A DNA stretch of 64,000 bases from positions 159,020 to 223,019 of the forward strand of contig JAUHZC010000002.1 in assembly GCA_030425805.1 (NCBI GenBank), given 5' to 3'. Both the position numbers and the translations under genes were made by a program. The notes under the pieces were generated by a model. That model had not been told where the DNA came from and made no database searches. It saw only the letters and a program-made list of their open reading frames with translations. Shown here piece after piece: positions 235-52,493 of the stretch. This DNA is from Alphaproteobacteria bacterium. Its GTDB lineage: Bacteria > Pseudomonadota > Alphaproteobacteria > JAUHZC01. Position 1 is the first letter of the stretch. Every line of letters begins with the position of its first letter.

Positions 235-972
235 ATGCTGAACTTTGAGAACAAACGCGCTCTTGTGACGGGAGCTTCTGGAGCCATTGGACGCGCCATT
301 GTAAAAGCCCTTCATGCCCAAGGCGCAACTGTTGCCATTTCAGGAACACGGGTGGAAGCCCTTGAGTCTCTTGCCAAAGAACTCGGGGACCGCTGTCATA
401 TTGTACCCTGCAAACTCAGTGATCCTGAGGCCGTCGCGCAGCTTATTCCTCAAGCGATTGAAGCCATGGGGGGTATTGATATTCTCATTAACAATGCTGG
501 TATTACCCGAGACAACCTTCTCATGCGGATGAAGCCAGAAGAGCGCGGAGATGTATTAAATATTAACCTTGAAGCCCCTATGGCTCTTTCTCAGGCTGCG
601 CTGAAGCCCATGATGAAGAATCGCTGGGGCCGCATCATCAATGTTTGTTCTGTTGTGGGATATACAGGAAACCCTGGTCAAACAAATTATTGCGCCTCAA
701 AAGCTGGACTTGTTGGATTTTCTAAGGCCTTGGCACAAGAAGTTGCCACCCGAGGCATTACGGTGAACTGTATTGCTCCTGGTTTTATTGAAAGCCCTAT
801 GACAGATAAACTAAATGAAGATCAACATAAAGCGATCCTTACCAAAATCCCCGCACAAAAAATGGGCACCGCACAGGATATTGCTAATGCTTGCGTTTTT
901 GCGGCTTCTGATGAATCTCAATACATGACTGGCCAGACCTTACACATCAACGGTGGTATGGCAATGTATTAG
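235..972 (+). CDS. fabG: 3-oxoacyl-[ACP] reductase
   Basis: 245 aa. N-terminal Rossmann motif TGASGAIGRAI and the SDR catalytic motifs NAG...YCASKAG are present. AGGAGA RBS lies 8 bp upstream. Standard fabD-fabG linkage. Confidence 0.93.
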   Translation: MLNFENKRALVTGASGAIGRAIVKALHAQGATVAISGTRVEALESLAKELGDRCHIVPCKLSDPEAVAQLIPQAIEAMGGIDILINNAGITRDNLLMRMKPEERGDVLNINLEAPMALSQAALKPMMKNRWGRIINVCSVVGYTGNPGQTNYCASKAGLVGFSKALAQEVATRGITVNCIAPGFIESPMTDKLNEDQHKAILTKIPAQKMGTAQDIANACVFAASDESQYMTGQTLHINGGMAMY

Positions 973-1007
973 GGAGCGAGAGTCTCCTATTCCCTAACCA
1001 GTTATGT

Positions 1008-1253
1008 GTGGATTCCGGGTTAAACCCGGAATGATCTTCTTTATAGGAAGAGAGATCGAAATTCCAGCGCAGGCTGGAATCCAGGACTCATTTCTTCCCT
1101 GCGAAAGCAGAGGGCTTTTTTTCCTGGACCCCGGATCAAATCCGGGGTTTCGAGGTAAGTACTAGTTTTTTGTCTTTCTAAGTCATCGCGAGCCCTGAAA
1201 GGGCGTGGCGATCCATAAGGTGCTTAGATTCCGGGTCAGGGCCCGGAATGACT
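1008..1253. repeat. cluster of four short palindromic hairpin elements of the ATTCCGG...CCGGAAT family, plus one copy of the dispersed CGCGATGAC repeat
   Basis: Seen directly. ATTCCGGGTT-A-AACCCGGAAT at about 1011-1031. ATTCCAGC-GCAG-GCTGGAAT at about 1061-1080. CCCCGGAT-CAA-ATCCGGGG at about 1128-1146. ATTCCGGG-TCAGGG-CCCGGAAT at about 1230-1251. AGTCATCGCGAGCCCTGAAAGGGCGTGGCGATCC at about 1181-1214. Confidence 0.6.
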
Positions 1254-2926
1254 TACTTCCCAGATCCCTGCCTCCGATGGAGCCTCATTCTTTTTATTAC
1301 TTCTGTCGCAATTAGGCTTAATTGCGCATGCGAAACACTCACAGTAACATAGTGAACGCGATTGAGATGTGCTTGCCGCCTTAACAGTCTTGACTGTAAT
1401 AACCAAACATAGGGCATAACTCTGGGATAGAACTGAGCATCAAGTATTGCTTTATCATCAAATCCACGTGCGAGACCAATCAAAGGCTTTTCCATCTTGC
1501 CACCAATACCAGAAAATATTTTTCCAATACGTATAGAATGAGCTTGTTGAGAAATGGGCCAACGCCTCATAAAGGCTTCTAAACCATAGTATTCTGCGAG
1601 TGCATTCAACGCCTTTGCTCCTCTAGGCTGGCTTTTGAAAAAAGGACCAACTTCTTTTAGAATGACGCCTGCAATTGGAGGCGTTACTGCAAAAGCAGGC
1701 TTAATGAGAAGACTAAGAAGAATCTGTGGAGAGAGAGGGGCTGCCCCAGGTCTCACTCGATATTCTTCCCTGCCAATTCGGATGACTCCCTCTTCAGGGT
1801 CAGGGTAAGTCTTTAGAAGGCATGTTTTTGCAGCACCAGATAATGTTGAACTTTTTGTTATCAATCCCCGAAGGGCACGTATTAATGCGTTAGTCACTTG
1901 TGTTGTGAGAGGATCATACCCAGCCTTCAATTCTCTATTCCCATAATATTGGTGATGCACTGGTCTATATACTGATTTCCCTGCATGATCAGAAAAACAT
2001 GGAGCTAAAATAAAAATTGTTACTAAGAGAGGATCAATCCCACTATGTCTTTCGAGATCATCTGGAAGAGAAATATGGGGATATGGCCTTGCAAGTTCCT
2101 GAAAAGTCTCCAAAGTCACAGCCTGCCCGCTTGTAGTGAAAGAAACATGACGCTCTGGTCGATGAATTTCACAACATACAATTTGGGGGCAGCTCAGAGG
2201 TGTTACGCCTAACCTCCCAAGCGTACTGTGGGCATGCCGAGGCATGTGGTCTGCACCCACACTGCTGGCAGCAGCCTCCTCATCTCCAGGAGCATAAGGT
2301 GTGCCCGTTTTAGGATTACATCTGGAAGCATCGTCCTCTACTTCATCTTCATATGCCCAAGGAATGCCACGCCTTTCTAATTCTCGTGCAAAGTATGCAG
2401 CATCTGCATATTTCAGCCCCGCTGTGGGGGCATCATGGGAAAGGGGGTGGCTTTTATCAAGGTTTGGAGCAGGCCTCATGCTCCTGTTTATAAGCACAAA
2501 TGTTTTTGGACCTAGCGTGACAGGGCCCACAACCTTAACTTCATCCTGTGACAAAAACAAAACGTTGCTAGGGTCTACAGGATGTATGATGGTACAAGCA
2601 GTATTCCACCCATAACAAGGCCGGTCAAGGCACCAAAAACTGACACCTGGCTGATATCTAGAGTTTGGCACAACAAGATCACACTTAGGATCGGTCTCCC
2701 TTGGCTGCATCAGTGGAATTTCTTCTCCCTTGAAAGTGATGCTTTTTCCAGAACAAGAGCATCCTGGCCTACACTGAATGCATGGGTACCCTATGTGAAC
2801 AAAGCGATGTCGTCCAGAACCTAATACGGTGTCATATTCCCCATAAACAGCAGATGGCTTTTCATCCCCTGCTGCTGCTGCAAATAAACCGGTAGAAAAC
2901 AATAAGAATAAAAGAAAAATATTCAC
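1253..2926 (-). CDS. hypothetical secreted Cys-rich protein
   Basis: 557-aa ORF. N-terminal signal peptide MNIFLLFLLFSTGLFAAAAG. Multiple Cys in the N-terminal third (CIQCRPGCSC). No family recognised by eye. Confidence 0.55.
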   Translation of the reverse strand: MNIFLLFLLFSTGLFAAAAGDEKPSAVYGEYDTVLGSGRHRFVHIGYPCIQCRPGCSCSGKSITFKGEEIPLMQPRETDPKCDLVVPNSRYQPGVSFWCLDRPCYGWNTACTIIHPVDPSNVLFLSQDEVKVVGPVTLGPKTFVLINRSMRPAPNLDKSHPLSHDAPTAGLKYADAAYFARELERRGIPWAYEDEVEDDASRCNPKTGTPYAPGDEEAAASSVGADHMPRHAHSTLGRLGVTPLSCPQIVCCEIHRPERHVSFTTSGQAVTLETFQELARPYPHISLPDDLERHSGIDPLLVTIFILAPCFSDHAGKSVYRPVHHQYYGNRELKAGYDPLTTQVTNALIRALRGLITKSSTLSGAAKTCLLKTYPDPEEGVIRIGREEYRVRPGAAPLSPQILLSLLIKPAFAVTPPIAGVILKEVGPFFKSQPRGAKALNALAEYYGLEAFMRRWPISQQAHSIRIGKIFSGIGGKMEKPLIGLARGFDDKAILDAQFYPRVMPYVWLLQSRLLRRQAHLNRVHYVTVSVSHAQLSLIATEVIKRMRLHRRQGSGK

Positions 2927-7006: not shown

Positions 7007-8305
7007 GTGCGACTAAACCTCCTTCTTTTTCTCTTTTCCCTTATATTTGTGACGGAAAACACATGGGCCCATAAATCAAAACCAAAGCCCAAGCCAGAGA
7101 CTTCCGGGCTCAAGCATGAAGACTACTTTACAGGCGCCAAAGAAGATCCTGACCTTCTTGCGCGCATCAAAGAGGCTATGGCTTTATTTAACCGGGAAGA
7201 ACCCCGGAATTTCTACCAGAAGCTTCAGGCAGACCGTGATCTTCGGGATGACTTCTTTGCGGGAAAGCTTTCTCCAGCATCCCTCAGACTAAATGATGAT
7301 GAGTTTACTCTTCTCCAAATCCTCGCAATTCAAAACCCCCGTATTTATGATGCAACATCTCATCCGGCCTTCCCTTTTGAAATTGACTTGAATGTATTCA
7401 ATCGGGAAATGATGGAGACTTTGGTTGACTTGCGCTTGCTCCCAAAAAAGGGACTCACTTATCTGATGACACCAAAGACGTTCGACCCTTTTGTTACATA
7501 CTTTGGGGGGAAGAAAGGAAAGCCGCCCCTCTCCCTTCACCTCATTGGGTTTGAGCAGGGCGTCCTTGTCCGAGCAACAACACTTCCCATGCTGCTCGAA
7601 AAATTCCAAGAACATGCTGAGGGGCTGCATCTGAAAGTAGAAGACGAACCCATCAGCCCCCCAAAAACCATTGCTGCTGTTCTTAAAACCTTGCAGCGGG
7701 GATTTGAAAAGAGGCATTTTACAAAACTTAAAACGCTCCACCTGACCTTTCCATTCAAAACTCAGGCAACAACACCCAAACTCCGTCTCTCCCATGAAGG
7801 AGCTTTAGTGGCAGCCCTTGTGATTCAGCTCTTGCGACAGATTAAGAGCATGGAGGATGTTTCTCTCTTCTTCCAGTTTGTGAATGATAAAGATATGACA
7901 CATGGTCAGCCCATTTGGTTTAAGCTTGAAAAATTCACTGTCTCTCCAGATCAGTATCTAGATCAAAAAGAAGTTGAGAAGCTAAAGCTCAAAGAAGACC
8001 CTATGCCGGCGCTTTACCATTACCGCCTTGCAAGCCCCATGGGATACATCGAGACAGAGAGTTTGAAAAAATTCCGCAGAAAAGCAGAAGGAACTATTCG
8101 TATGCTTGATGGAAAATCTTGGGCCTTTAAGCACCGCCGGGACCGTAAGCGTTCTCAAAAGAAAGCAAAGAAAAAAGAGAAACCTCTATCAAAAAAAGAA
8201 GTTTCAAAGCGCCCTGTCGCAACGGAAAAACCACAGAAGAAAATGCTTGATGAGGCCGAAGATCCCGGCGTCTTCATAGAACCCTATGAAGAGCCGGTGG
8301 AATAA
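7007..8305 (+). CDS. hypothetical secreted protein with Lys-rich basic C-terminal tail
   Basis: 432 aa. Apparent GTG start at 7007. Signal peptide MRLNLLLFLFSLIFVTENTWA. The C-terminal 70 aa are KRSQKKAKKKEKPLSKKE... Confidence 0.5.
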   Translation: MRLNLLLFLFSLIFVTENTWAHKSKPKPKPETSGLKHEDYFTGAKEDPDLLARIKEAMALFNREEPRNFYQKLQADRDLRDDFFAGKLSPASLRLNDDEFTLLQILAIQNPRIYDATSHPAFPFEIDLNVFNREMMETLVDLRLLPKKGLTYLMTPKTFDPFVTYFGGKKGKPPLSLHLIGFEQGVLVRATTLPMLLEKFQEHAEGLHLKVEDEPISPPKTIAAVLKTLQRGFEKRHFTKLKTLHLTFPFKTQATTPKLRLSHEGALVAALVIQLLRQIKSMEDVSLFFQFVNDKDMTHGQPIWFKLEKFTVSPDQYLDQKEVEKLKLKEDPMPALYHYRLASPMGYIETESLKKFRRKAEGTIRMLDGKSWAFKHRRDRKRSQKKAKKKEKPLSKKEVSKRPVATEKPQKKMLDEAEDPGVFIEPYEEPVE

Positions 8306-20997: not shown

Positions 20998-21849
20998 TTA
21001 TCCTCTCGCGGCTGCTTTGGCTTTGAGGACCATCTCTTTCCAGAAAGCTGTGAAGGCCTCTGGCGTTGTTTTTTCCATATGGGCATTAGCACCGGTGTAA
21101 TGGATTCCAACAAATGTCACACCTTCAACATTTTCAAAGGCTTCTTGGGCAGAAGCGAGGTATTTCTCATTGTCATCAATGAGAACAATGACCTTTGGCT
21201 TTTGGCGCATGTGATCTACGAGAGCTTTTAAAGCACTTCCCTTTGTCACAGCACAGCCCTTCGTGTCCGCATTGCAGAACAAAATCCCATGTTTAAAAAC
21301 AGGAGAACGTTTCAGTGTTGAAACAAGCTCTGTCAGCACAATCCGACGCCGTCCAAGGGAAGATTGATCTTTAAAAGAAATCCCTTGGGCCTGCAGTTCA
21401 TCCCGACGATGATCTTCGATGGAGAGAATGTTCCCAACCTTCCCTGGCATTGTTCCCGTCACCGCCATGGTTTGAAATCCACGTTCTTGGAGGGCTTTCA
21501 CTTGTTTTGGTATGCTACCCTCGACAAGTTTGCTCTTCCCTTGCTTGGTGGATAAAACCTTGGCGAGAAAGCGAATTTCTTTGGGCTGGGGTTTGAGAAT
21601 TTTGTAAACAGTCTTCCGATGGGCCTTCAGATTATTCGGATAAACATTGATGTTTCCTGGCATTGTAAGCGTAAAGTCAACATCGAAACAAACCAGAATA
21701 TCCTGGGGATTGTGTCCTTTTGCTGCGACCTCAACAGCCGCTATAGCATCTGCCATTGTTGCGTAATGGGTATGAGTGCATTCTGCAGCGCTTGGGTCCG
21801 ACTGCAGCGCCATAAGCAATAAGGCCACAGTACTATATAATTTTTTCAT
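20998..21849 (-). CDS. secreted HAD-superfamily-like hydrolase
   Basis: 283 aa. Signal peptide MKKLYSTVALLLMALQSDPSAA. HAD motif I FDVDFTLT (DxDxT) and motif IV LIDDN. Its start overlaps the stop of the upstream MerR gene by 17 bp. Confidence 0.6.
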   Translation of the reverse strand: MKKLYSTVALLLMALQSDPSAAECTHTHYATMADAIAAVEVAAKGHNPQDILVCFDVDFTLTMPGNINVYPNNLKAHRKTVYKILKPQPKEIRFLAKVLSTKQGKSKLVEGSIPKQVKALQERGFQTMAVTGTMPGKVGNILSIEDHRRDELQAQGISFKDQSSLGRRRIVLTELVSTLKRSPVFKHGILFCNADTKGCAVTKGSALKALVDHMRQKPKVIVLIDDNEKYLASAQEAFENVEGVTFVGIHYTGANAHMEKTTPEAFTAFWKEMVLKAKAAARG

Positions 21850-22949: not shown

Positions 22950-23681
22950 TTAAAACTCATCATCATCTGGGTGCTGAGCCTGTTGAGGGGTTTGACATCC
23001 TCTTTCCGACAAAGGATATTTCACTTTGCTGCGGGGTCTTTTTGAGGGCTCTTGAATATGATGCCGTTGAACAAGTATAGACTCTCCGGGCCGGCCTCTT
23101 TTTCCAACAAGAAGAAGATCTTTATCTGTTGTAGGAGATCCAGCAAGAACCTGTCTTGGCGGAGCAGAAAAATCCACTCCGTGCCATGATACAGCCGCAG
23201 CTGCAGCGCTAGAAGAGGAAGAAGAAGGCTGAGGTACTGCTGGCCTTGTCCTTCTTCTGGGAGGTTTTGAATAAACTTCCGTGGCAAGAGCAGCAGCGAA
23301 AGCTGCAGAAGAAGATGATGAGGATGGTGCTGTAGGCATTCTTCTTGGCTCAGGTCTGTAGGCACGGGCTGCAGTGGCGGCAGCAGCAGCTTCTTGGGCT
23401 TCACGAGCCTGCTCAAAGTTTTCCCCTTCATCATGCCCACGTTTCATGGGTTCGCTATTACTTTTTCCGACTGGTTGGGCAAGAGCCAAGGGTTCTGAAA
23501 ATCTGTGGGAACCTTCAGCAGGCTCACTCCTCACACTCCCAGTCTCTGGGCTTTCTGCAGTAGCAATTCCAGAATGATCAGTTCCTGTCTCCCACCCCTC
23601 TGATTCTGAAGCTTCTGCAGCTGAAAAGAGAGGAACAGTCATCAAAACAGACAGAACAAATAAAATATTTTCTTTTTTCAT
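22950..23681 (-). CDS. hypothetical secreted low-complexity (poly-Ser/Ala) protein
   Basis: Signal peptide MKKENILFVLSVLMTVPLFSAA. The start was chosen at the second Met. Runs SSSSSSAAFAAA and SSSSSSAAAAAV. Acidic C-terminus. Confidence 0.5.
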   Translation of the reverse strand: MKKENILFVLSVLMTVPLFSAAEASESEGWETGTDHSGIATAESPETGSVRSEPAEGSHRFSEPLALAQPVGKSNSEPMKRGHDEGENFEQAREAQEAAAAATAARAYRPEPRRMPTAPSSSSSSAAFAAALATEVYSKPPRRRTRPAVPQPSSSSSSAAAAAVSWHGVDFSAPPRQVLAGSPTTDKDLLLVGKRGRPGESILVQRHHIQEPSKRPRSKVKYPLSERGCQTPQQAQHPDDDEF

Positions 23682-23779
23682 AAAACAAACCATTTTTATT
23701 AAAAATAATTTGTTTTTTTATTTTTACAACAATTAAACTTTTAATGAATTTTTATAAATACTTAAAATGCTATTACAAT

Positions 23780-23831: not shown

Positions 23832-25937
23832 TTACATGATGAACTGAGCCAAGATGGAGATCATCAACAATGCAACGATGTTTGTAATCTTGATCATTGG
23901 GTTCACGGCAGGACCAGCTGTATCCTTGTAAGGATCTCCCACTGTATCTCCTGTTACAGAAGCCTTGTGAGCCTCTGACCCTTTACCACCAAAGTGACCA
24001 TCTTCAATGTACTTCTTGGCGTTATCCCAAGCACCACCACCGGATGTCATGGAGATCGCAACGAAAAGTCCTGTTACGATTGTTCCCAAAAGCATCGCAC
24101 CAACAGTGATGAAAGCAGATTCTGCACCAGAGATTTGGTTGATCACAAGCCAAACCACAACAGGCGCAAATACAGGCAGCATGGAAGGCACGATCATTTC
24201 CCGAATCGCAGACTTCGTGAGAAGGTCTACAGCCCGGCTATAATCTGGCTTTGCTTTTCCTGTCATAATGCCTTTGATTTCTTTGAACTGGCGACGCACT
24301 TCAACAACAACCTCAGAACCAGCACGGCCAACAGCCATCATGCCCATCGCACCGAAAAGGTAAGGCAACAGGCCGCCAATAAAGAGACCGATCACGACAT
24401 AAGGATCTTCAAGACTAAAGGTAATGTTGAGCTTACCTGCAAAGAAGTGCTGAAGGTCTTGTGTGTATGCCGCAAAAAGAACAAGAGCTGCAAGACCAGC
24501 AGATCCAATCGCGTACCCTTTTGTCACAGCCTTTGTTGTGTTTCCAACAGCATCCAAAGCATCTGTCACTTTACGTACATCACTTGGAAGCTCAGCCATT
24601 TCAGCAATACCACCAGCATTGTCTGTGATTGGACCATAAGCATCCAAGGCCACAACCACACCAGCCAAAGCCAACATTGTTGTTGCTGCAATAGCAATTC
24701 CAAAGAGGCCAGCATTCATGAAGCTCACAAGGATTCCGGCACAGATTACAAGCACAGGCAGCGCACAAGCTTCCATGCTCACAGCCAATCCTTGGATAAT
24801 GTTTGTGGCATGACCTGTTGTGGAAGCCTCAGCCACACTCTTCACAGGACGATATTCCGTGGATGTGTAGTACTCAGTAATCCAAACAAGAGCTGCCGTC
24901 ACCAAAAGACCTGTGAGGGAACATACGAGGATGTTTGTGGAGCTCACAAGCTTCTCATCAATGACCAAATCATTTGGAATCATGTTCAGTGTGACGAGAA
25001 CAATCAGTCCTCCAGAGATCACAGCAGCTGTGATAAACCCTTTATAGAGGGCACCCATCACATTCTCAGACTTGCCAAGCTTGACAAAGAAAGTCCCGAT
25101 AATGGAGCCAATAATACAAACAGCCCCAATCACCAAAGGATACATCATCATTGTTGCCTGATAAGCCCCAGTCACGAACAGAGAGGCAAGAACCATTGTT
25201 GCAACAATCGTTACAGCATAAGTCTCAAACAAGTCAGCAGCCATTCCAGCACAGTCACCCACATTGTCACCAACGTTATCAGCAATCACACCAGGGTTAC
25301 GGGGGTCATCCTCAGGAATACCAGCTTCGATCTTTCCAACAAGGTCTGCACCAACGTCAGCACCTTTTGTGAAGATACCACCACCCAAGCGGGCAAAGAT
25401 GGAAATAAGAGATGCACCAAAGGACAAAGCCACAAGAGACTCTGTAAGAAGGCGATCTTCTGTCCCCATTGCAGAAAGCACATAGTAGTATCCTGTTACG
25501 CTGAGAAGACCAAGAGCCACAACCAACATTCCTGTGATGGCCCCACCCTTAAATGCGATATCAAGCGCAGGATGCATTCCTTTACGGGCAGCTTCAGCTG
25601 TACGCACATTAGACCGGACAGATACATTCATTCCAATATACCCTGCAAGCCCAGAGAGAACCGACCCAATGACAAAGCCAAGGGCAACTTCAAGGGAGAG
25701 CAAGAAGTAAAGGATAATCGCCACAACAGCTCCCACAGCCATAATTGTGGAATACTGGCGATTGAGGTAGGCACTTGCCCCCTCCTGAATCGCACCTGCA
25801 ATCTCTTGCATGCGCTTGTTACCTGTGCTGGCCTCACTAACCCGAGACCAGGCATAGGCACTGTAGGCCAAAGCCAAGAGGATCGATCCAAAAATCAACC
25901 CGTAACATAGTTCAAGTGACATTTCGTCATTCTCCAT
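23832..25937 (-). CDS. hppA: membrane-bound proton-translocating pyrophosphatase
   Basis: 701 aa. Conserved V-PPase motifs GGG(I/A)[14 protein letters not shown] and DNVGDNVGD. 15-16 TM helices. Confidence 0.95.
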
Positions 25938-25992
25938 TTTGTTTACATGAAATTTAAAATGACAGAATCTGCCACCCAGTGCAATCCTGAAA

Positions 25993-26325: not shown

Positions 26326-26426
26326 GCTCCCTATTATAGATGAGCTTTGGCTAAAGTGGCAATATATGCAAAACTTGATTTTAGGATCTACGATTCCTAT
26401 ATGGCTTAAAATTTATGGAAAATAGA

Positions 26427-26999
26427 ATGAAGAACCTTGCATTAACGCTTTTAATAATCACTGCTTTATCCGCAAAAGCCCATGCTGCTAATAATGCTCA
26501 AGATGCTGCAATACCTCTTTCTGGGCAGACGGATCTCAATGCTGCCCCCTCTCTTTTTGCCTATGCTGCCCTTCGCGAACCACAAGCTGATGGCCTTACC
26601 AGAGCAATAGCCTCTTTGAGAAATGGCACAACACGTGGTGGAGGTGCTCTACGTGGAAATGTCACCATTTCAGTATGCCCCACAGATGCAGAAGATGGTC
26701 GTGTTCTTTTCTCTTTAGTTCCTGACCGAGAACATGCACCAGATCCTTTTCCACTCTCCTGGCATGCGACGAATGTTGAAACAGAAATAGGCCAGCTTGC
26801 TGAAGCCTTGGCCGCCAATACAACAATCACACACTTTTACTTTGAGAATATGGGAGTCCCTGGCAATATAGCTGCCCTTCGTGAAGCTGCAGAAAACAAC
26901 TCGCATATTATTGAAAGCACATTCCCCCAAATGGCAGGAGAAGAGCTAGCTGCAGAGACAGCAACAGCAGGTGGCGGAGCCGCCGCCGTTGAAGATTAA
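26427..26999 (+). CDS. hypothetical secreted protein
   Basis: Signal peptide MKNLALTLLIITALSAKAHA. Ala/Gly-rich C-terminus. An alternative start lies 12 bp upstream at 26415. Confidence 0.5.
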   Translation: MKNLALTLLIITALSAKAHAANNAQDAAIPLSGQTDLNAAPSLFAYAALREPQADGLTRAIASLRNGTTRGGGALRGNVTISVCPTDAEDGRVLFSLVPDREHAPDPFPLSWHATNVETEIGQLAEALAANTTITHFYFENMGVPGNIAALREAAENNSHIIESTFPQMAGEELAAETATAGGGAAAVED

Positions 27000-29097: not shown

Positions 29098-32000
29098 TTG
29101 GGAAAGTACCGCATGGTCAAACAGAGCCCTCCTTTAAGCACAAAGCTGCTGCCCAGTTTTTATTCAAGCTTAAAAAACGAGAAAAACAGAATTCTCGTTG
29201 GGGACTTTGAAGCGACCTTCAGTGAGTTTGATTGCCTTGCAATTTTTCACCACATCAAAGAAAAGCCCCGAGAACAAACAGCTCAAATTCTTAACCTCTC
29301 CCCTAACAGTGTGGATACACACCTCAGAAACTTCAGAGCGGATAAAAATGGGTATCTCAAAATTCCAAATCTAGCCCGATACCTTAATAACTGTGATGAA
29401 GCCTCGCAAAATGCTTTACAACTTCATTATCGACGGTGGGAGGTGGAGGATGCTTTCCAGAAGGATTATCTCCAAAGCCTGAAGAGCAAGCACCTCCATC
29501 AACAAAAAGGCTTCTTGAGGGTAGACAGAGATATTGATCAAAGCCAGATCCCAATAAAGCAGTTTGAAAAGCACCTCAAACTCGCAGGTATTGATCTTAC
29601 TTTAGATGAAGACAAAGATGTGTCCTTTAGTTTTCACATCACCAAGGGGCAAGAGAATTATCTAAGCCCAGATGAGGCTCAAGAAGCATCCGGTATTGTC
29701 ATATTAATTGATGATCACATATCCAGGAATCATCATACATATGACCTCCCAAATCATGACGACTACTACATAGCATTGTTACGTATTTTACACACCCTTT
29801 ACCCCTCACAATTACCTGAAGAAAAAATTGAAGAGTTCAAAAAAAAGCAAGAAGCTCTTTTAAAGGGGTGTGTCAAAATCAAACAGAGAAAAATGTCTTC
29901 TCTAAAAAAAACACCCTCCCCTAAGCTCCTATACGTTCTTCTCGTTGCCACTGTGGCGTTTTGGGTAACAAAGGCAAGCTATGATATTCTCTATAGCGTT
30001 CCAAAAGTTCATTCAGAGCTCTCCTCTTTGCCGGAAAACCATGCATTCTTAGATCGCAGAGAGCTTATTAAAAAAATTGAAGAAAAGTTTAATGATGGAG
30101 GTGACATAAAAGTCGTTGGCATTGTTGGCATCGGAGGCGCGGGTAAAACAACACTTGCTTATCATTACGCACGCCTCCAAGAAACGCCTGTCATCTGGGC
30201 CATTAATGCTGAGACAAAGGAAAGCTTACTCCTCTCGTTTCAAAATTTGGCAAATAATTTGGCGAACACACCGCTCTTACGGGAACAGCTTAGATCCATC
30301 TCTGAATTGGGAGATTATGATAAAGAAAAAAGACTTTTCATGTTTATCACAAGACTCCTTAAAAGGTATCCAAATTGGATTCTAATTTACGATAACGTAG
30401 AGGACTACACCCAACTAAAGAGATATTTCCCGCACAGCAGCAGAGTCTGGGGAAAGGGAAGCGTCATCATCACATCCCAGGACATGCATATTTCTAACAC
30501 AAGTTATATCAAGCCAGATAAAATAGTGATCGTAGAGGGACTTAAACCCCGTGAAAGCCTGAGTCTTTTTAAAAAGATTTTTTTTAACTCTCCTGACCAC
30601 CCGTTAAGCGAGCCCCAGAAGGAAGAAATCACTAATTTCTTAAAGAAGATACCTCCCCTGCCTCTCGATGTTTCTCTTGCTGCCTATTATCTTAAAGAGA
30701 CTGGAATTTCCTTTAATTCATATTCACAGCACCTGAATAAAAAGCAGCTAGAATTTGAGAAAATGCAGAAGGAAGTTTTGGGAAATACGAGCTTTTATAA
30801 AGAGACTCGACTGAGCATTGCTGATTTAACATTTAAAAAAATTGTGCAAATCAATCAGGAATTCAAAGAGCTTTTATTTTTGGTAGGATTGCTAGACTCC
30901 CAAAACATTCCTCGGAATTTCCTATACATGTATAAAGATAGCCTCATTGTTGACAATTTCATTTACCAACTTAAAAAGTACTCGCTTATCACGAACGAAT
31001 CACACGGAACCCCTTTGGGAACAACTTTTTCGATTCATCGATTCATGCATACAGTGATGTTTTCAAATACCAGGGAAAGCCTAGAACCTAGCAAGCAAAA
31101 AGCCATTCTAGAGAAAGCAGCCGCCATATTTGAAAACTATGCAAACTCACTGCTCGAAAAAATTGATTTATCAGAGATGAAATTTTTTATACCGCATTGC
31201 GACATGTTTCTTAAACATACACACCTTATCTCCCCAAGAAGAAGCGCCCGAATATATAGAGAATTAGGGGACATGTATTATTATTTGAGGGACGATCGTA
31301 AGGCAAAAAAACTTCTGGAAGAAAGCTTGAAAATCAACCGAGATGATAATCCTAATGATATAGACAGGGCACATGTGCTTGTCTTCTTAAGCCATATTGA
31401 TGTCGTACTTGGCAAAAACAAAAAGGCCCAGCTTTTGCTAAAAAAAGTAGAGAAGAAATACAAAGAAGTTTTGAAAAAAAACACACTCGAAGTTGGAAGA
31501 CTGCTCGTTGCGATGGGGGAAATGTACGGATATTTAGGTAGATTTAAAAAAGCGAAGGAAGTTGTAGAAAGAGGATACAAGATCCATCAAAAATTCCATG
31601 ATCTCATAGGATTTGCAAGAACCATGGCCTATTTAGGAGTCTCTCTTGGTTGTTTAGGAGACTACGAAAAAGCCATACCGCTTATGGAAAAGAGTTTAGA
31701 AATTTACAAGAAGCATTACAAAAGTGACATAAACTATGCATGGCTATTGGTTCACCTTGGTGAATTTTATGGCAAAACGGGGAATTACAAAAAAGCCCTT
31801 CAGCTTATCAACCTTGGCACAAAATCATATAAAGACAATTTACCCCACCCTCATGCTGATATCGCTTGGGCTTTACTGTACCAAACAGGAGCTTATTTAA
31901 ACCTCAAAAACATTCCTAAAGCTCAAGAAGCGGCAGAAGAGGGAATGAAGGTACATAAGATGTTGTTTGATGAAAATAATGTCAGAATGGCTGAGGCAAA

Positions 32001-32403
32001 ATTAGAGCTTGCACGCGTTTATAAAGAAATCAGGAAGCTCGAGGAGGCGGAAAATTTACTCCATTCCGTACTTGAGAAATTCCAAGATAGTTTTGGTAAA
32101 AACAATTTGTGGACAGCCTCTGCACACTTTCACTTAGCAGAGGTTTACACTCTCAAAAGGAATTTTTCTGATGCTGAACCCCACTATGCAAAAGCCATTT
32201 CAATTTTGGAGGAATTCAAACATCCTGATTTAAAAATAGTCTTGCATAAGAAGAAAGACTTACGTTCCAGAATTACTCTTGAAGACTCAGAAAACAAACA
32301 AACTCCTCAAGGAAACTTTGGGGCGGTGATTAAAAAGATTTGGAATAAATTTAGTTCTTTTTTTCCAGACAAAACACGCGACAACGCGACTTCCCCCACA
32401 TGA
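29098..32403 (+). CDS. STAND NTPase: NB-ARC domain plus C-terminal TPR array, N-terminal LuxR-like HTH region and one hydrophobic segment
   Basis: 1101 aa. TTG at 29098 or ATG at 29113. NB-ARC motifs: P-loop GIVGIGGAGKTTLA, Walker B ILIYDNVED, RNBS-B-like GSVIITSQD, GLPL-like GLKPRESLSLFKK. At least 8 TPR-like repeats over residues about 700-1050. N-terminal TAQILNLSPNSVDTHLRNFRA resembles a LuxR/GerE HTH. Hydrophobic stretch LLYVLLVATVAFWVT. Confidence 0.8.
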   Translation: MGKYRMVKQSPPLSTKLLPSFYSSLKNEKNRILVGDFEATFSEFDCLAIFHHIKEKPREQTAQILNLSPNSVDTHLRNFRADKNGYLKIPNLARYLNNCDEASQNALQLHYRRWEVEDAFQKDYLQSLKSKHLHQQKGFLRVDRDIDQSQIPIKQFEKHLKLAGIDLTLDEDKDVSFSFHITKGQENYLSPDEAQEASGIVILIDDHISRNHHTYDLPNHDDYYIALLRILHTLYPSQLPEEKIEEFKKKQEALLKGCVKIKQRKMSSLKKTPSPKLLYVLLVATVAFWVTKASYDILYSVPKVHSELSSLPENHAFLDRRELIKKIEEKFNDGGDIKVVGIVGIGGAGKTTLAYHYARLQETPVIWAINAETKESLLLSFQNLANNLANTPLLREQLRSISELGDYDKEKRLFMFITRLLKRYPNWILIYDNVEDYTQLKRYFPHSSRVWGKGSVIITSQDMHISNTSYIKPDKIVIVEGLKPRESLSLFKKIFFNSPDHPLSEPQKEEITNFLKKIPPLPLDVSLAAYYLKETGISFNSYSQHLNKKQLEFEKMQKEVLGNTSFYKETRLSIADLTFKKIVQINQEFKELLFLVGLLDSQNIPRNFLYMYKDSLIVDNFIYQLKKYSLITNESHGTPLGTTFSIHRFMHTVMFSNTRESLEPSKQKAILEKAAAIFENYANSLLEKIDLSEMKFFIPHCDMFLKHTHLISPRRSARIYRELGDMYYYLRDDRKAKKLLEESLKINRDDNPNDIDRAHVLVFLSHIDVVLGKNKKAQLLLKKVEKKYKEVLKKNTLEVGRLLVAMGEMYGYLGRFKKAKEVVERGYKIHQKFHDLIGFARTMAYLGVSLGCLGDYEKAIPLMEKSLEIYKKHYKSDINYAWLLVHLGEFYGKTGNYKKALQLINLGTKSYKDNLPHPHADIAWALLYQTGAYLNLKNIPKAQEAAEEGMKVHKMLFDENNVRMAEAKLELARVYKEIRKLEEAENLLHSVLEKFQDSFGKNNLWTASAHFHLAEVYTLKRNFSDAEPHYAKAISILEEFKHPDLKIVLHKKKDLRSRITLEDSENKQTPQGNFGAVIKKIWNKFSSFFPDKTRDNATSPT

Positions 32404-50060: not shown

Positions 50061-50184
50061 AAATTTTATAATTTATCTTAAGGGGAAAACGCCCTTCTTT
50101 CAAGGGGGAGTTTGACGTCCCTACAGATAGAGATCCAGGGGAAGAGTCATCACAAAAGTTGGAGACTTTAGCCCTCTATGTGCG

Positions 50185-50245
50185 GACTGCCGCGTCGCTT
50201 CGTTCCTCGCAGTGACTTCATACTGTCATCGCGAAAGTCTGTGAC
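50185..50245. repeat. dispersed intergenic repeat (same family as 20914-20990)
   Basis: Reverse complement: TTCGCGATGACAGTATGAAGTCACTGCGAGGAACGAAGCGACGCGGCAGTCC. The other copy is CTCGCGATGACTGTAAGGAGGTCATTGCGAGGAGCGGAGCATTGCTGCAATCC at 20930-20985. Confidence 0.5.
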
Positions 50246-50355: not shown

Positions 50356-50549
50356 TGGATGAAGTGATAATTATCCGTTTCCAGGGCTGCTGTCAATGGA
50401 AAAACGACTCTACATCGGTTCAAATACTTGCTTCAACATGATTTTTGAAAAAATTTACCAAAATTTTAGATTAATGGTTCAGAATAAATATATCTGGAGA
50501 TCTATTACTCGAATATTTGGTCTCAATTATTATTTTTGACGAGGAGTCT

Positions 50550-52493
50550 ATGAACGCAACTGCAAGACAACTCAAGACAATTTTTTTGATTGCCCTAGCA
50601 TATGTTATGTTAGGCGCTTCCCCTGCCCTTGCACAGAAAAGTGATGGCGGTGCACAGCTTGGACAAATCCTTGGTTCTGTTGCTGGAAAGCTCTTTGCTG
50701 GAGGCCAAAAGAAAACGCAGCAGCCTGCACAAGTGCAGCAGCAAACACAACCAGCTCAAGCACAAATGCCGCAAAGCCAAAGCTATGCTCAGCAAGCCCC
50801 TGTTATCCAGCCGCAAGCAACCGGAGGATACCAGCAACAAGATATGGGCCAATATCAACAACAGGGGTATCAACAGGGCTATCAGCAAAATTACCAACAA
50901 GGTTATCAATCAAGCTACCCTCAACAATACGCTCAACAAGGTGCTGCTTCATATCAACAGCAATATGATACCACAGCACAGCAACCCCAGGCTGCCTCCG
51001 TTGTACGGTTTGATCCGACAACAGGAAAGCCTCTCACAGGGCTGCCTAAATTTGATCCTGTAACTGGAAAGCCTATGATGCCTAAGTTTGATCCCTTCAC
51101 AGGGCTTCCCATTTCGGAAGAGCAAGCCGGCACTCTTTTTCCTGACTTTGCCAAGCGTCCTGAGATGACATCCTCTTCTGACGAAGATGAAGAAAAGGGC
51201 AAGGATGAAGACACTAAAGAAGAAAAAGATGAAAAAAAATCCGATGAAAAAACTTCAGAGGAAACTGAAGACAAGGCTAAGCCAGACGATGCCGACAAAA
51301 AGGGTGACGCCAATAAAAAAGACAACACTGATAAAGCAGAAACCCAAGATGAAGAGCAAAGCAAAAAAGATGATAACGGTGATGTAAAAGATGCTAAAAA
51401 GAAAGAAGAGCCTGCAAAAGAAGAAACGGCAAAAGAGGAAGCTGTAAAAGCAGAACCTGCTGAAAAAACCGAGAAGGATGAAGCTGCCCCCCAAGAGAAG
51501 CGGGAAGATAGAAAACGCCGTGATGCTCGGGAACGTCCACCCCTTGACCGTGACTATGGATATGATGATCGTCGTCCTGCCCCACGAGACCGATACTATG
51601 ATGACCGCCGTGATCCACTCCCTCCAAGAGACGATCGATACTACGATGATCGTCGCGATTCATACCCTCCTCGAGATGATCGATACTACGATGACCGTCG
51701 TGAGCCCCTTCCTCCAAGAGACGACCAATACTATGATGATCCACGAGGATCCTTCCCACCACAAGATGACCGCTACTATGATGAGGGAAGGTATCCTGAA
51801 GATGATCCCTACTACCGTGATGCTCCGGAGCGCCAACGGCCAGGGGATGATCGGAATTGGTCAGCCTCGGACAGGCCAGACTATGAAGCCGCTCTAAAAT
51901 CTCAACGTGCACAAACTCTACAAGCTGCGACATTGCCCTCTGTGCAGGATCTTGGAAAAGTCCACAAAGGCAAGGTCCAGCTCATCGGAAATCAGATTCA
52001 GCTTCTCCAACATGATGTAAAAAGCTTTCATAAACAAAATCGAGCCCTGGCTCGCCAAAAGGCATTTGAGAGAAAAAAATGGAACCAGCTCCTTATCCGC
52101 ATTGAAAATGAGCTCACGGCTTTGCAGAATGACTCCCGTGAGTTTCTCTCTCGCCTTCCTTATGAATCGTCTAACTCCCTCTCCCAAAATCAAATCCGCA
52201 TCCCAAGAACTTTCCTCAGTGCCCCTGCACTTGAAATTCAAGATGGTACTTCTGAAATTGCACGCATTGAATTACGCAAAGAGTTAATTGATCACGAGCT
52301 TGATAAAATCATGACAATGAACGTGATCTTCGAAGATCAGCTCCAGAATAGTAATCTTGAAGCTGAACACCTGATTCAAATTAAGAATGAACTGAATGCC
52401 TTAAAAGCAAGAGAAGGTAAAATCAAAAAACTCCTCAATCAGATTCCTGATAAGGCGAAGCAAATATTGCTTCAAACCGCCAACCAAACTTAA
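50550..52493 (+). CDS. hypothetical secreted low-complexity protein: Gln/Tyr-rich prion-like region, FDPxTGxP repeats, acidic K/E/D block, five RDDRYYDDRR tandem repeats, C-terminal coiled coil
   Basis: Start at ATG 50550, preceded by GAGGAG. Signal peptide MNATARQLKTIFLIALAYVMLGASPALA. Repeats read directly from the translation. Confidence 0.6.
   Translation: MNATARQLKTIFLIALAYVMLGASPALAQKSDGGAQLGQILGSVAGKLFAGGQKKTQQPAQVQQQTQPAQAQMPQSQSYAQQAPVIQPQATGGYQQQDMGQYQQQGYQQGYQQNYQQGYQSSYPQQYAQQGAASYQQQYDTTAQQPQAASVVRFDPTTGKPLTGLPKFDPVTGKPMMPKFDPFTGLPISEEQAGTLFPDFAKRPEMTSSSDEDEEKGKDEDTKEEKDEKKSDEKTSEETEDKAKPDDADKKGDANKKDNTDKAETQDEEQSKKDDNGDVKDAKKKEEPAKEETAKEEAVKAEPAEKTEKDEAAPQEKREDRKRRDARERPPLDRDYGYDDRRPAPRDRYYDDRRDPLPPRDDRYYDDRRDSYPPRDDRYYDDRREPLPPRDDQYYDDPRGSFPPQDDRYYDEGRYPEDDPYYRDAPERQRPGDDRNWSASDRPDYEAALKSQRAQTLQAATLPSVQDLGKVHKGKVQLIGNQIQLLQHDVKSFHKQNRALARQKAFERKKWNQLLIRIENELTALQNDSREFLSRLPYESSNSLSQNQIRIPRTFLSAPALEIQDGTSEIARIELRKELIDHELDKIMTMNVIFEDQLQNSNLEAEHLIQIKNELNALKAREGKIKKLLNQIPDKAKQILLQTANQT

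Follow-up and report, generated by a model that had tools for sequence, protein, structure and literature searches.

The 64,000-nt window analyzed here (contig JAUHZC010000002.1 of an alphaproteobacterium, positions 159,020 to 223,019) starts with the 3' end of fabD, followed by fabG and by a spacer that holds five short DNA hairpins, designated H1 to H5, which are the subject of this report. A convergent orphan open reading frame (ORF) closes the spacer on its far side. A sequence-only reading of the window had noted about 280 bp of non-coding DNA after fabG, and this holds: the last base of fabG is 972, and the interval 973-1252 is non-coding and without a credible gene, the sole ORF there being a 53-aa frame (1004-1165) that crosses the hairpins. 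The features of the locus are listed below, each palindrome being enclosed in square brackets between its 5' head and its 3' tail; SRM denotes the Ssn-related motifs with which the hairpins are compared later.

235-972, plus strand: fabG (3-oxoacyl-ACP reductase; Pfam adh_short_C2, 1e-60), last gene of a truncated fabD-fabG pair, with fabD upstream in contig L001
1008-1036, minus strand: H1, gATC-[ATTCCGGGTT T AACCCGGAAT]-CCAC; SRM-like, head ATC for GTC; 10-bp perfect stem
1057-1084, plus strand: H2, CGAA-[ATTCCAGC GCAG GCTGGAAT]-CCAG; SRM-like tail, atypical GAA head; 8-bp perfect stem
1097-1122, plus strand: terminator-like hairpin between H2 and H3, CCCTGC GAAA GCAGAGGG, then C and seven T residues (T7); read from the sequence
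1124-1152, minus strand: H3, CGAA-[ACCCCGGAT TTG ATCCGGGGT]-CCAG; 9-bp perfect stem
1181-1216, plus strand: H4, aGTC-[ATCGCGAGCCC TGAA AGGGCGTGGCGAT]-CCAT; imperfect 28-nt palindrome (1185-1212), ATCGCG...GGCGAT, in the GTC...C frame
1224-1253, minus strand: H5, aGTC-[ATTCCGGG CCCTGA CCCGGAAT]-CTAA; canonical SRM frame; 8-bp perfect stem; directly adjoins the TAA with which the convergent ORF ends
1253-2926, minus strand: convergent orphan ORF, 557 aa (485 aa as called by NCBI), with a hydrophobic N-terminus

Among public short-read contigs, a single one carries this fabG (L001; Logan, ERR3420974); it stops at window position 1082, inside H2, and the orphan ORF sits on a separate 4.5-kb short-read contig. 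The hairpin array thus breaks short-read assembly.

Anatomy of the hairpin array

The spacer had been described as containing four perfect hairpins that share ATTCCGG/CCGGAAT arms. A repeat finder returned four perfect inverted repeats with stems of 8-10 bp: 1012-1032 (10 bp, arms ATTCCGGGTT/AACCCGGAAT), 1061-1080 (8 bp, ATTCCAGC/GCTGGAAT), 1128-1148 (9 bp, ACCCCGGAT/ATCCGGGGT) and 1228-1249 (8 bp, ATTCCGGG/CCCGGAAT). The number and length of the stems therefore stand, but only two of them carry the arms in question, those at 1061-1080 and 1128-1148 being of other sequence; the ATTCCGG-N-CCGGAAT pattern itself gave 2 matches, with none in 100 shuffles. The fifth, imperfect hairpin (H4) and the terminator-like hairpin at 1097-1122 had been overlooked.

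Chance palindromes were ruled out as an explanation by shuffling: perfect stems of at least 8 bp occurred at a mean of 0.05 in dinucleotide shuffles of the 282-bp segment, against 4 observed, and 5000 shuffles never contained 4. Given how often such hairpins occur elsewhere in the window, the Poisson probability of four or more is 7e-6. The spacer as a whole folds with z = -6.5 as single-stranded DNA (ssDNA) and with z of about -5 as RNA of either strand. All five units form ssDNA hairpins, at -7.8 to -10.1 kcal/mol (H1, -9.0 kcal/mol, z = -4.4; H3, -10.1; H4, -8.6), with the head left single-stranded.

The five hairpins have a common frame consisting of three bases, a palindrome of 20-28 nt that begins with A and ends with T, and a C. 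The C is present in all five, while the head is GTC in H4 and H5, ATC in H1 and GAA in H2 and H3. Orientations alternate along the array (-,+,-,+,-). H2 and H3 have both the CGAA head and the CCAG tail in common, in inverted orientation, and H4 and H5 form a tail-to-tail doublet within which 1179-1198 and 1236-1255 are an inverted pair of 20 nt with 85% complementarity. The segment 1057-1152 can be regarded as a 96-nt composite unit, with the inverted CGAA-headed hairpins surrounding the terminator-like hairpin and its T7 run; its ssDNA fold closes as a three-way junction through TCGAAA/TTTCGA, and no second copy of this composite was found in the window.

Relationship to the Neisseria Transformation Sequence and Ssn-related motifs

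A full-text search with the hairpin head sequences led to the work of Chenal et al. (Nat Commun 2025; PMC11893778). That study describes the Neisseria Transformation Sequence (NTS), CGTCATTCCCGCGMAVGCGGGAATCYRG, which contains the classical dRS3 repeat ATTCCC-N8-GGGAAT and has the layout CGTC-ATTCCCGCG-MAV-GCGGGAAT-CYRG, together with SRMs, oriented hairpins that occur across many phyla in spatial linkage with SsnA, a 94-aa GIY-YIG protein (cd10448) (PMC11893778). SsnA binds the hairpin solely as ssDNA and cuts it a few nucleotides upstream; cleavage is governed most by the three nucleotides that precede the palindrome and binding most by the C just after it, while the identity of the loop is dispensable for cleavage (PMC11893778). 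SRMs are enriched in host-associated bacteria, including Wolbachia, Rickettsia and Neisseria (PMC11893778).

The frame of the spacer hairpins, a three-base head, a palindrome bounded by A and T, and a C, is the frame of NTS and SRM. The spacer hairpins are a new example of the already described NTS/dRS3/SRM repeat family and no new kind of element; a hairpin cluster that lacked an explanation is now placed in a system of repeats and nuclease whose first description dates from 2025.

This assignment was examined with hairpins taken from around ssn genes. Loci were fetched by tblastn against a plasmid collection, using a family consensus as query, and the records returned carry the annotation 'GIY-YIG nuclease family protein'. 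Among these records is an N. gonorrhoeae chromosome whose protein has Y6, Y17 and E64 exactly at the positions mutated in the published study (PMC11893778); around its gene lie 11 NTS copies, which alternate strictly in orientation. In 8 of the 10 loci, hairpins of the form GTC-[A..T]-C flank the ssn gene, usually alternating; examples are CGTCATCCCAGGGCTTGACCCTGGGATCCAC from Rhizobium and CGTCACCCCGGGCTTGACCCGGGGTCCCG from Sphingobium. The alternation of H1-H5 is thus also seen around real ssn genes. The palindrome of H3 resembles the Sphingobium ssn-flanking hairpin, GTC-ACCCCGGG CTTGA CCCGGGGT-CC.

A covariance model, R1, was built from 20 such hairpins only, drawn from 8 loci (N. gonorrhoeae, Azospirillum, Rhizobium, Shinella, Sphingobium, Spirosoma, Planktothrix and Photobacterium), and was then used, with filters off, to search the 64 kb on either strand. 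Its three best matches in the window were H5 (27.2 bits, E = 2e-4), H2 (23.1 bits, E = 0.002) and H1 (22.5 bits, E = 0.003), all on the predicted strand. H4 is too long for this short model and is not covered by it. Another R1 match, at 25925-25972 (E = 0.5), was judged a chance hit on reading the sequence.

The likeness to NTS and SRM with SsnA therefore comprises the GTC on the 5' side and the C on the 3' side of a palindrome beginning ATTCC, ATCCC or ACCCC, the intergenic arrays of alternating orientation, and recognition of the window hairpins by a model of ssn-flanking ones. The differences are the stem, ATTCCGGG in the window and ATTCCCGCG in NTS; the coexistence of several sequence types, two of them with a CGAA head; the failure of the published search string to match any of the copies; and the fact that no ssn gene was seen in the 73.8 kb of this genome that was read (the window plus 9.7 kb upstream). 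With dRS3, which also has a role as a phage integration site, and the neisserial intergenic mosaic elements (NIME) of Neisseria (ATTCCC-N8-GGGAAT), the hairpins share the ATTCC...GGAAT core and the clustered intergenic arrays with short spacers, but they differ in the inner stem bases and in the organism; dRS3/NIME often adjoin surface or variable genes, and the window hairpins adjoin orphan ORFs. Repeats of the RS spacer type, in units of 50-150 bp, were not found within the window.

The sequence-only reading had classed the elements as REP/RPE-like, and this label is not retained, because their GTC...C frame is that of NTS/dRS3/SRM and neither the GTAG head of RAYT-associated REPs nor the 100-150 bp of an RPE. 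RPEs are palindromic repeats of 100-150 bp, often inserted in frame inside genes, and like the hairpins described here they spread in the reduced genomes of intracellular alphaproteobacteria; the window units, at 25-35 nt and all extragenic, are set apart from them by size and location. Known RNA families offered no other identity: at gathering score, Rfam found only tRNA-Asp in the window, and an E-value scan of 900-1350 gave a single sub-threshold FtrB match (25 bits, where the gathering score is 66).

Further copies in the window and in other genomes

That the spacer hairpins belong to a family of small palindromic elements, as had been proposed, is borne out by related copies at two further intergenic sites, B (20882-20989) and C (50185-50216). 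A structural scan of the window for GTC-[A..>=5 bp..T]-C found the frame also at 20917-20948 (minus), 20958-20989 (plus) and 50185-50216 (minus). The units at these sites are as follows.

20882-20907, plus strand: site B, degenerate SRM-like hairpin, GCT-[ATTCCAGGCCTGATGGGAT]-CCAG, arms with 1 mismatch; read from the bases by eye; tentative
20914-20949, minus strand: site B, second copy of the H4 type, GTC-[ATCGCGAGCCCTGAAAGGGCGCGGCGAT]-CCAC; ssDNA fold -9.9 kcal/mol
20957-20993, plus strand: site B, third type, GTC-[ATTGCGAGGAGCGGAGCATTGCTGCAAT]-CCAC, 5-bp outer stem within the frame; tentative
50182-50217, minus strand: site C, third type, GTC-[ACTGCGAGGAACGAAGCGACGCGGCAGT]-CCGC, between tRNA-Asp and nuoA; tentative

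In total, three intergenic sites hold about 10 units in 64 kb. Site B, like the spacer array, lies between two convergent 3' ends, and the 44-nt stretch 1181-1224 recurs there, at 20949-20906, with 93% identity. A head-only remnant, GTCATCGCG, is present at 50225 in site C, where the third-type unit has CGAGGAACGA in common with the Spirosoma ssn-flanking hairpin. The dispersed CGCGATGAC repeat reported earlier was recovered in three window copies (1182-1190 on the minus strand, 20940 and 50225), against 0.1 expected, and proves to be the reverse complement of the 5' head of H4, GTCATCGCG.

The spread of the H5 stem was assessed by scanning the genomes of 185,579 species for GATTCCGGG-N(2-12)-CCCGGAATGA; the figures refer to the matches listed and are lower bounds. 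The pattern occurs in at least 119 loci across many phyla, the matches listed including Bacteroidota, Nitrospirota, Firmicutes, Chloroflexota, Rickettsiales, Bradyrhizobium and many others. Among the matches listed, 74 of 141 copies have the loop TCAAG together with the flanks CTG...C, which are the reverse complement of the NTS frame, and a canonical SRM lies within 80 nt of 19 of the 141 hairpins, tail-to-tail in the examples inspected. The same listed loci contain 36 matches to the published SRM string, against about 4 expected, and GTC stands on one side of 51 of their 62 other A[TC][TC]CC palindromes. The most widespread form, ATTCCGGG-TCAAG-CCCGGAAT, itself escapes the published string, its pan-phylum consensus missing one position, in the loop, by manual alignment; published SRM counts are therefore probably too low. 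A BLAST search of the H4/H5 doublet against plasmids gave matches at chance level only.

Two clusters of this hairpin were encountered in the survey. In an Armatimonadota metagenome-assembled genome (MAG), ATTCCGGG-TCAAG-CCCGGAAT forms a tandem array of five copies with a 47-nt period (L055, 5494-5705), and an alphaproteobacterial MAG carries six copies in 1.8 kb (L102, 146-1902).

Loss of the fab gene order

The sequence-only reading had also pointed out that acpP is missing from its expected place after fabG. Comparison was made with metagenomic loci encoding FabG relatives, the best at 62-66% identity. An acpP ORF, recognized by its DSLD motif, lies within about 500 nt after fabG in 50 of the 56 related loci whose sequence extends far enough downstream; in the 73.8 kb read here, neither of the genes acpP and fabF was detected. 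The loss of synteny is therefore real, and the observation stands. Decayed remnants of the two genes, whether inside the spacer or outside it, were also considered, and tblastn with AcpP and FabF from a related locus found nothing in the window or L001. Upstream of fabD, an amino-acid permease gene lies on the opposite strand.

A second case of these hairpins in a fab cluster was seen in L143, a metagenomic contig with a FabG 62% identical, which has a tail-to-tail pair between fabD and fabG (334-420). The two units score 32.4 and 27.9 bits with R1, and their tails read ATCCATAAG, as in H4. Although the pair lies between them, fabD and fabG stay adjacent in this contig, so the presence of hairpins does not by itself split an operon. 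In the only 906 bp available downstream of fabG in L143, acpP is absent and two minus-strand ORFs are found instead.

The earlier proposal that the hairpins invaded and broke the fab operon remains unproven, two cases being an anecdote. A stronger version would make the array a rearrangement breakpoint, at which recombination or Ssn-type cleavage at the hairpins split fabD-fabG from acpP-fabF; it would further hold that several hairpin subfamilies, including a CGAA-headed one possibly bound yet resistant to cleavage, are all missed by current SRM searches. We consider this version improbable. If it were true, the hairpins would take an active part in reshuffling operons and would be more widespread than is now estimated.

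Proposed mechanism and alternative explanations

The data presented above have led us to propose, as the likely account of the spacer, a five-unit NTS/dRS3/SRM array together with a probable fabG terminator, in which the units would be targets of an Ssn nuclease and would have built up in a tolerant gap. Replication, repair or DNA uptake would expose each unit as single-stranded DNA, which would fold as a hairpin. The hairpin would then be bound by a small Ssn-family nuclease of the GIY-YIG type, which would nick the strand a few bases 5' of GTC. H4 and H5 would be the cleavable units, whereas the GAA-headed H2 and H3 may be bound but poorly cut or left uncut. As the TAA stop directly precedes the GTC of H5, this unit would be cut on the minus strand within the last codons of the orphan ORF. 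The array may have accumulated in the insertion-tolerant gap between the convergent genes, where the fabD-fabG-acpP-fabF order was lost. The locus offers a test case in an undersampled, symbiont-like lineage, with five adjacent units that have intact or altered heads, beside a lost acpP.

Several results weigh against this account. None of the five hairpins matches the published SRM string, HGTCWYN(0-2)YYVSBRHN(0-5)WNVSBRGN(0-2)RNCYNB, whose lone match in the window (2830-2861) lies in coding DNA and is at chance level. Two substitutions separate the string from each of H1, H2, H3 and H5, and four separate it from H4. In H5, by manual alignment, the mismatches fall at one position of the loop and at the fourth base beyond the palindrome; in H2 and H3 the mismatch is a head with AA for TC. 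Neither H2 nor H3 carries the GTC head, and H3 scored weakly with R1 (9.6 bits, E = 4). The third repeat type (20957-20993 and 50182-50217) folds no better than its shuffles. No ssn/GIY-YIG gene was found in the 73.8 kb, where a hidden Markov model of 4 Ssn proteins gave a best E of 2.2 against the six-frame translation; the Ssn motif had no match in the window or L001. A crude motif search of 8-kb blocks likewise found no ssn-like ORF in any of the 119 loci with the ATTCCGGG hairpin (L002-L120). Finally, the role of SRMs outside Neisseria is not known to those who described them (PMC11893778).

Some of these results would also fit dead relics, that is, hairpins of SRM-type origin in a genome without an Ssn nuclease, which have no present function at the DNA level and act at most as stem-loops at transcript ends. 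The lack of an ssn gene in the 73.8 kb, the altered heads (GAA in place of GTC in two of the five units, ATC in one), the degenerate and head-only copies at sites B and C, and the absence of an SsnA homolog from 19% of SRM-rich genomes (PMC11893778) all agree with this reading. Against it, four units retain flawless stems of 8-10 bp and two sites share the 44-nt H4 unit at 93% identity, which argues for recent spread or selection, and the CGAA...CCAG combination common to H2 and H3 looks like a subfamily, not random decay. We regard relics as unlikely, though plausible.

Far less probable are two explanations that place the hairpins outside the NTS/dRS3/SRM family altogether. Elements of the REP/BIME/REPIN type, known from Enterobacteria and Pseudomonas and mobilized by RAYT, an IS200/IS605-like Y1 transposase, are likewise short extragenic palindromes of about 20-35 nt that form inverted, alternating pairs and cluster in the gaps between convergent genes, and the analogy was noted by the Ssn paper itself (PMC11893778). 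The window heads, however, are GTCA, ATCA and GAAA, not GTAG or GTGG; frame, loop and tail match ssn-flanking hairpins; and a Pfam scan found no Y1 transposase among the 38 larger ORFs. The enzymes differ in class as well, HUH/Y1 for REP and GIY-YIG for SRM. The array might instead have evolved locally, without relation to a repeat family, as terminators or RNA-stabilizing stem-loops that serve fabG and the convergent ORF. Its location between two convergent 3' ends, the T-rich stretch after H1, the GAAA-loop hairpin with T7 at 1097-1122 and the RNA folding z of about -5 would suit that role, but a true U-run follows only the central hairpin, the same sequences with oriented flanks recur in the window and in many phyla, and a role in RNA would need no conserved single-stranded GTC head. 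We give this explanation, like the REP/BIME one, very little credence.

The 1097-1122 element is the only one in the spacer with the form of an intrinsic terminator, a G+C-rich stem-loop followed by a U-run; H1 has a weak T-rich tail, and H2-H5 have no U-run. Its stem is weak and contains one bulge (ssDNA z = -0.6), and a consensus terminator scan did not call it. It is probably the end of the fabG transcript.

Flanking ORF and other features of the window

The convergent gene had been described as encoding a secreted protein. A convergent ORF does end at 1253, but 'secreted' amounts to a hydrophobic N-terminus in an orphan: the 557-aa product belongs to no Pfam family and has no homolog besides itself among 5.8e9 proteins, and its composition showed nothing unusual. 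It is one of ten long ORFs without a Pfam family that lie between housekeeping operons (atp, nuo, H+-PPase), at the following positions.

1256-2926, 7007-8302, 11186-13330, 18472-20439 and 22953-23693: ORFs without a Pfam family
26415-26996, 50517-52490, 53417-57025, 57555-58277 and 62046-63944: ORFs without a Pfam family

The window also encodes an NB-ARC/TPR protein (29098-32400) and a DUF2608 protein (21001-21849). Together with the orphan ORFs, these suggest that the source is a host-associated, poorly sampled alphaproteobacterium. Beside site C, an orphan ORF of 658 aa contains a coding tandem repeat of 45/90 nt (51588-51784) that specifies a DRYYDDRR-type peptide repeat. A 281-nt direct repeat, 97% identical, is present at 57107-57387 and 58357-58637. 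The second copy belongs to gltX (58357-59775, minus strand), of which it forms the 3' end; the first, in the spacer that follows a 1203-aa orphan ORF, is therefore a duplicated gene tail.

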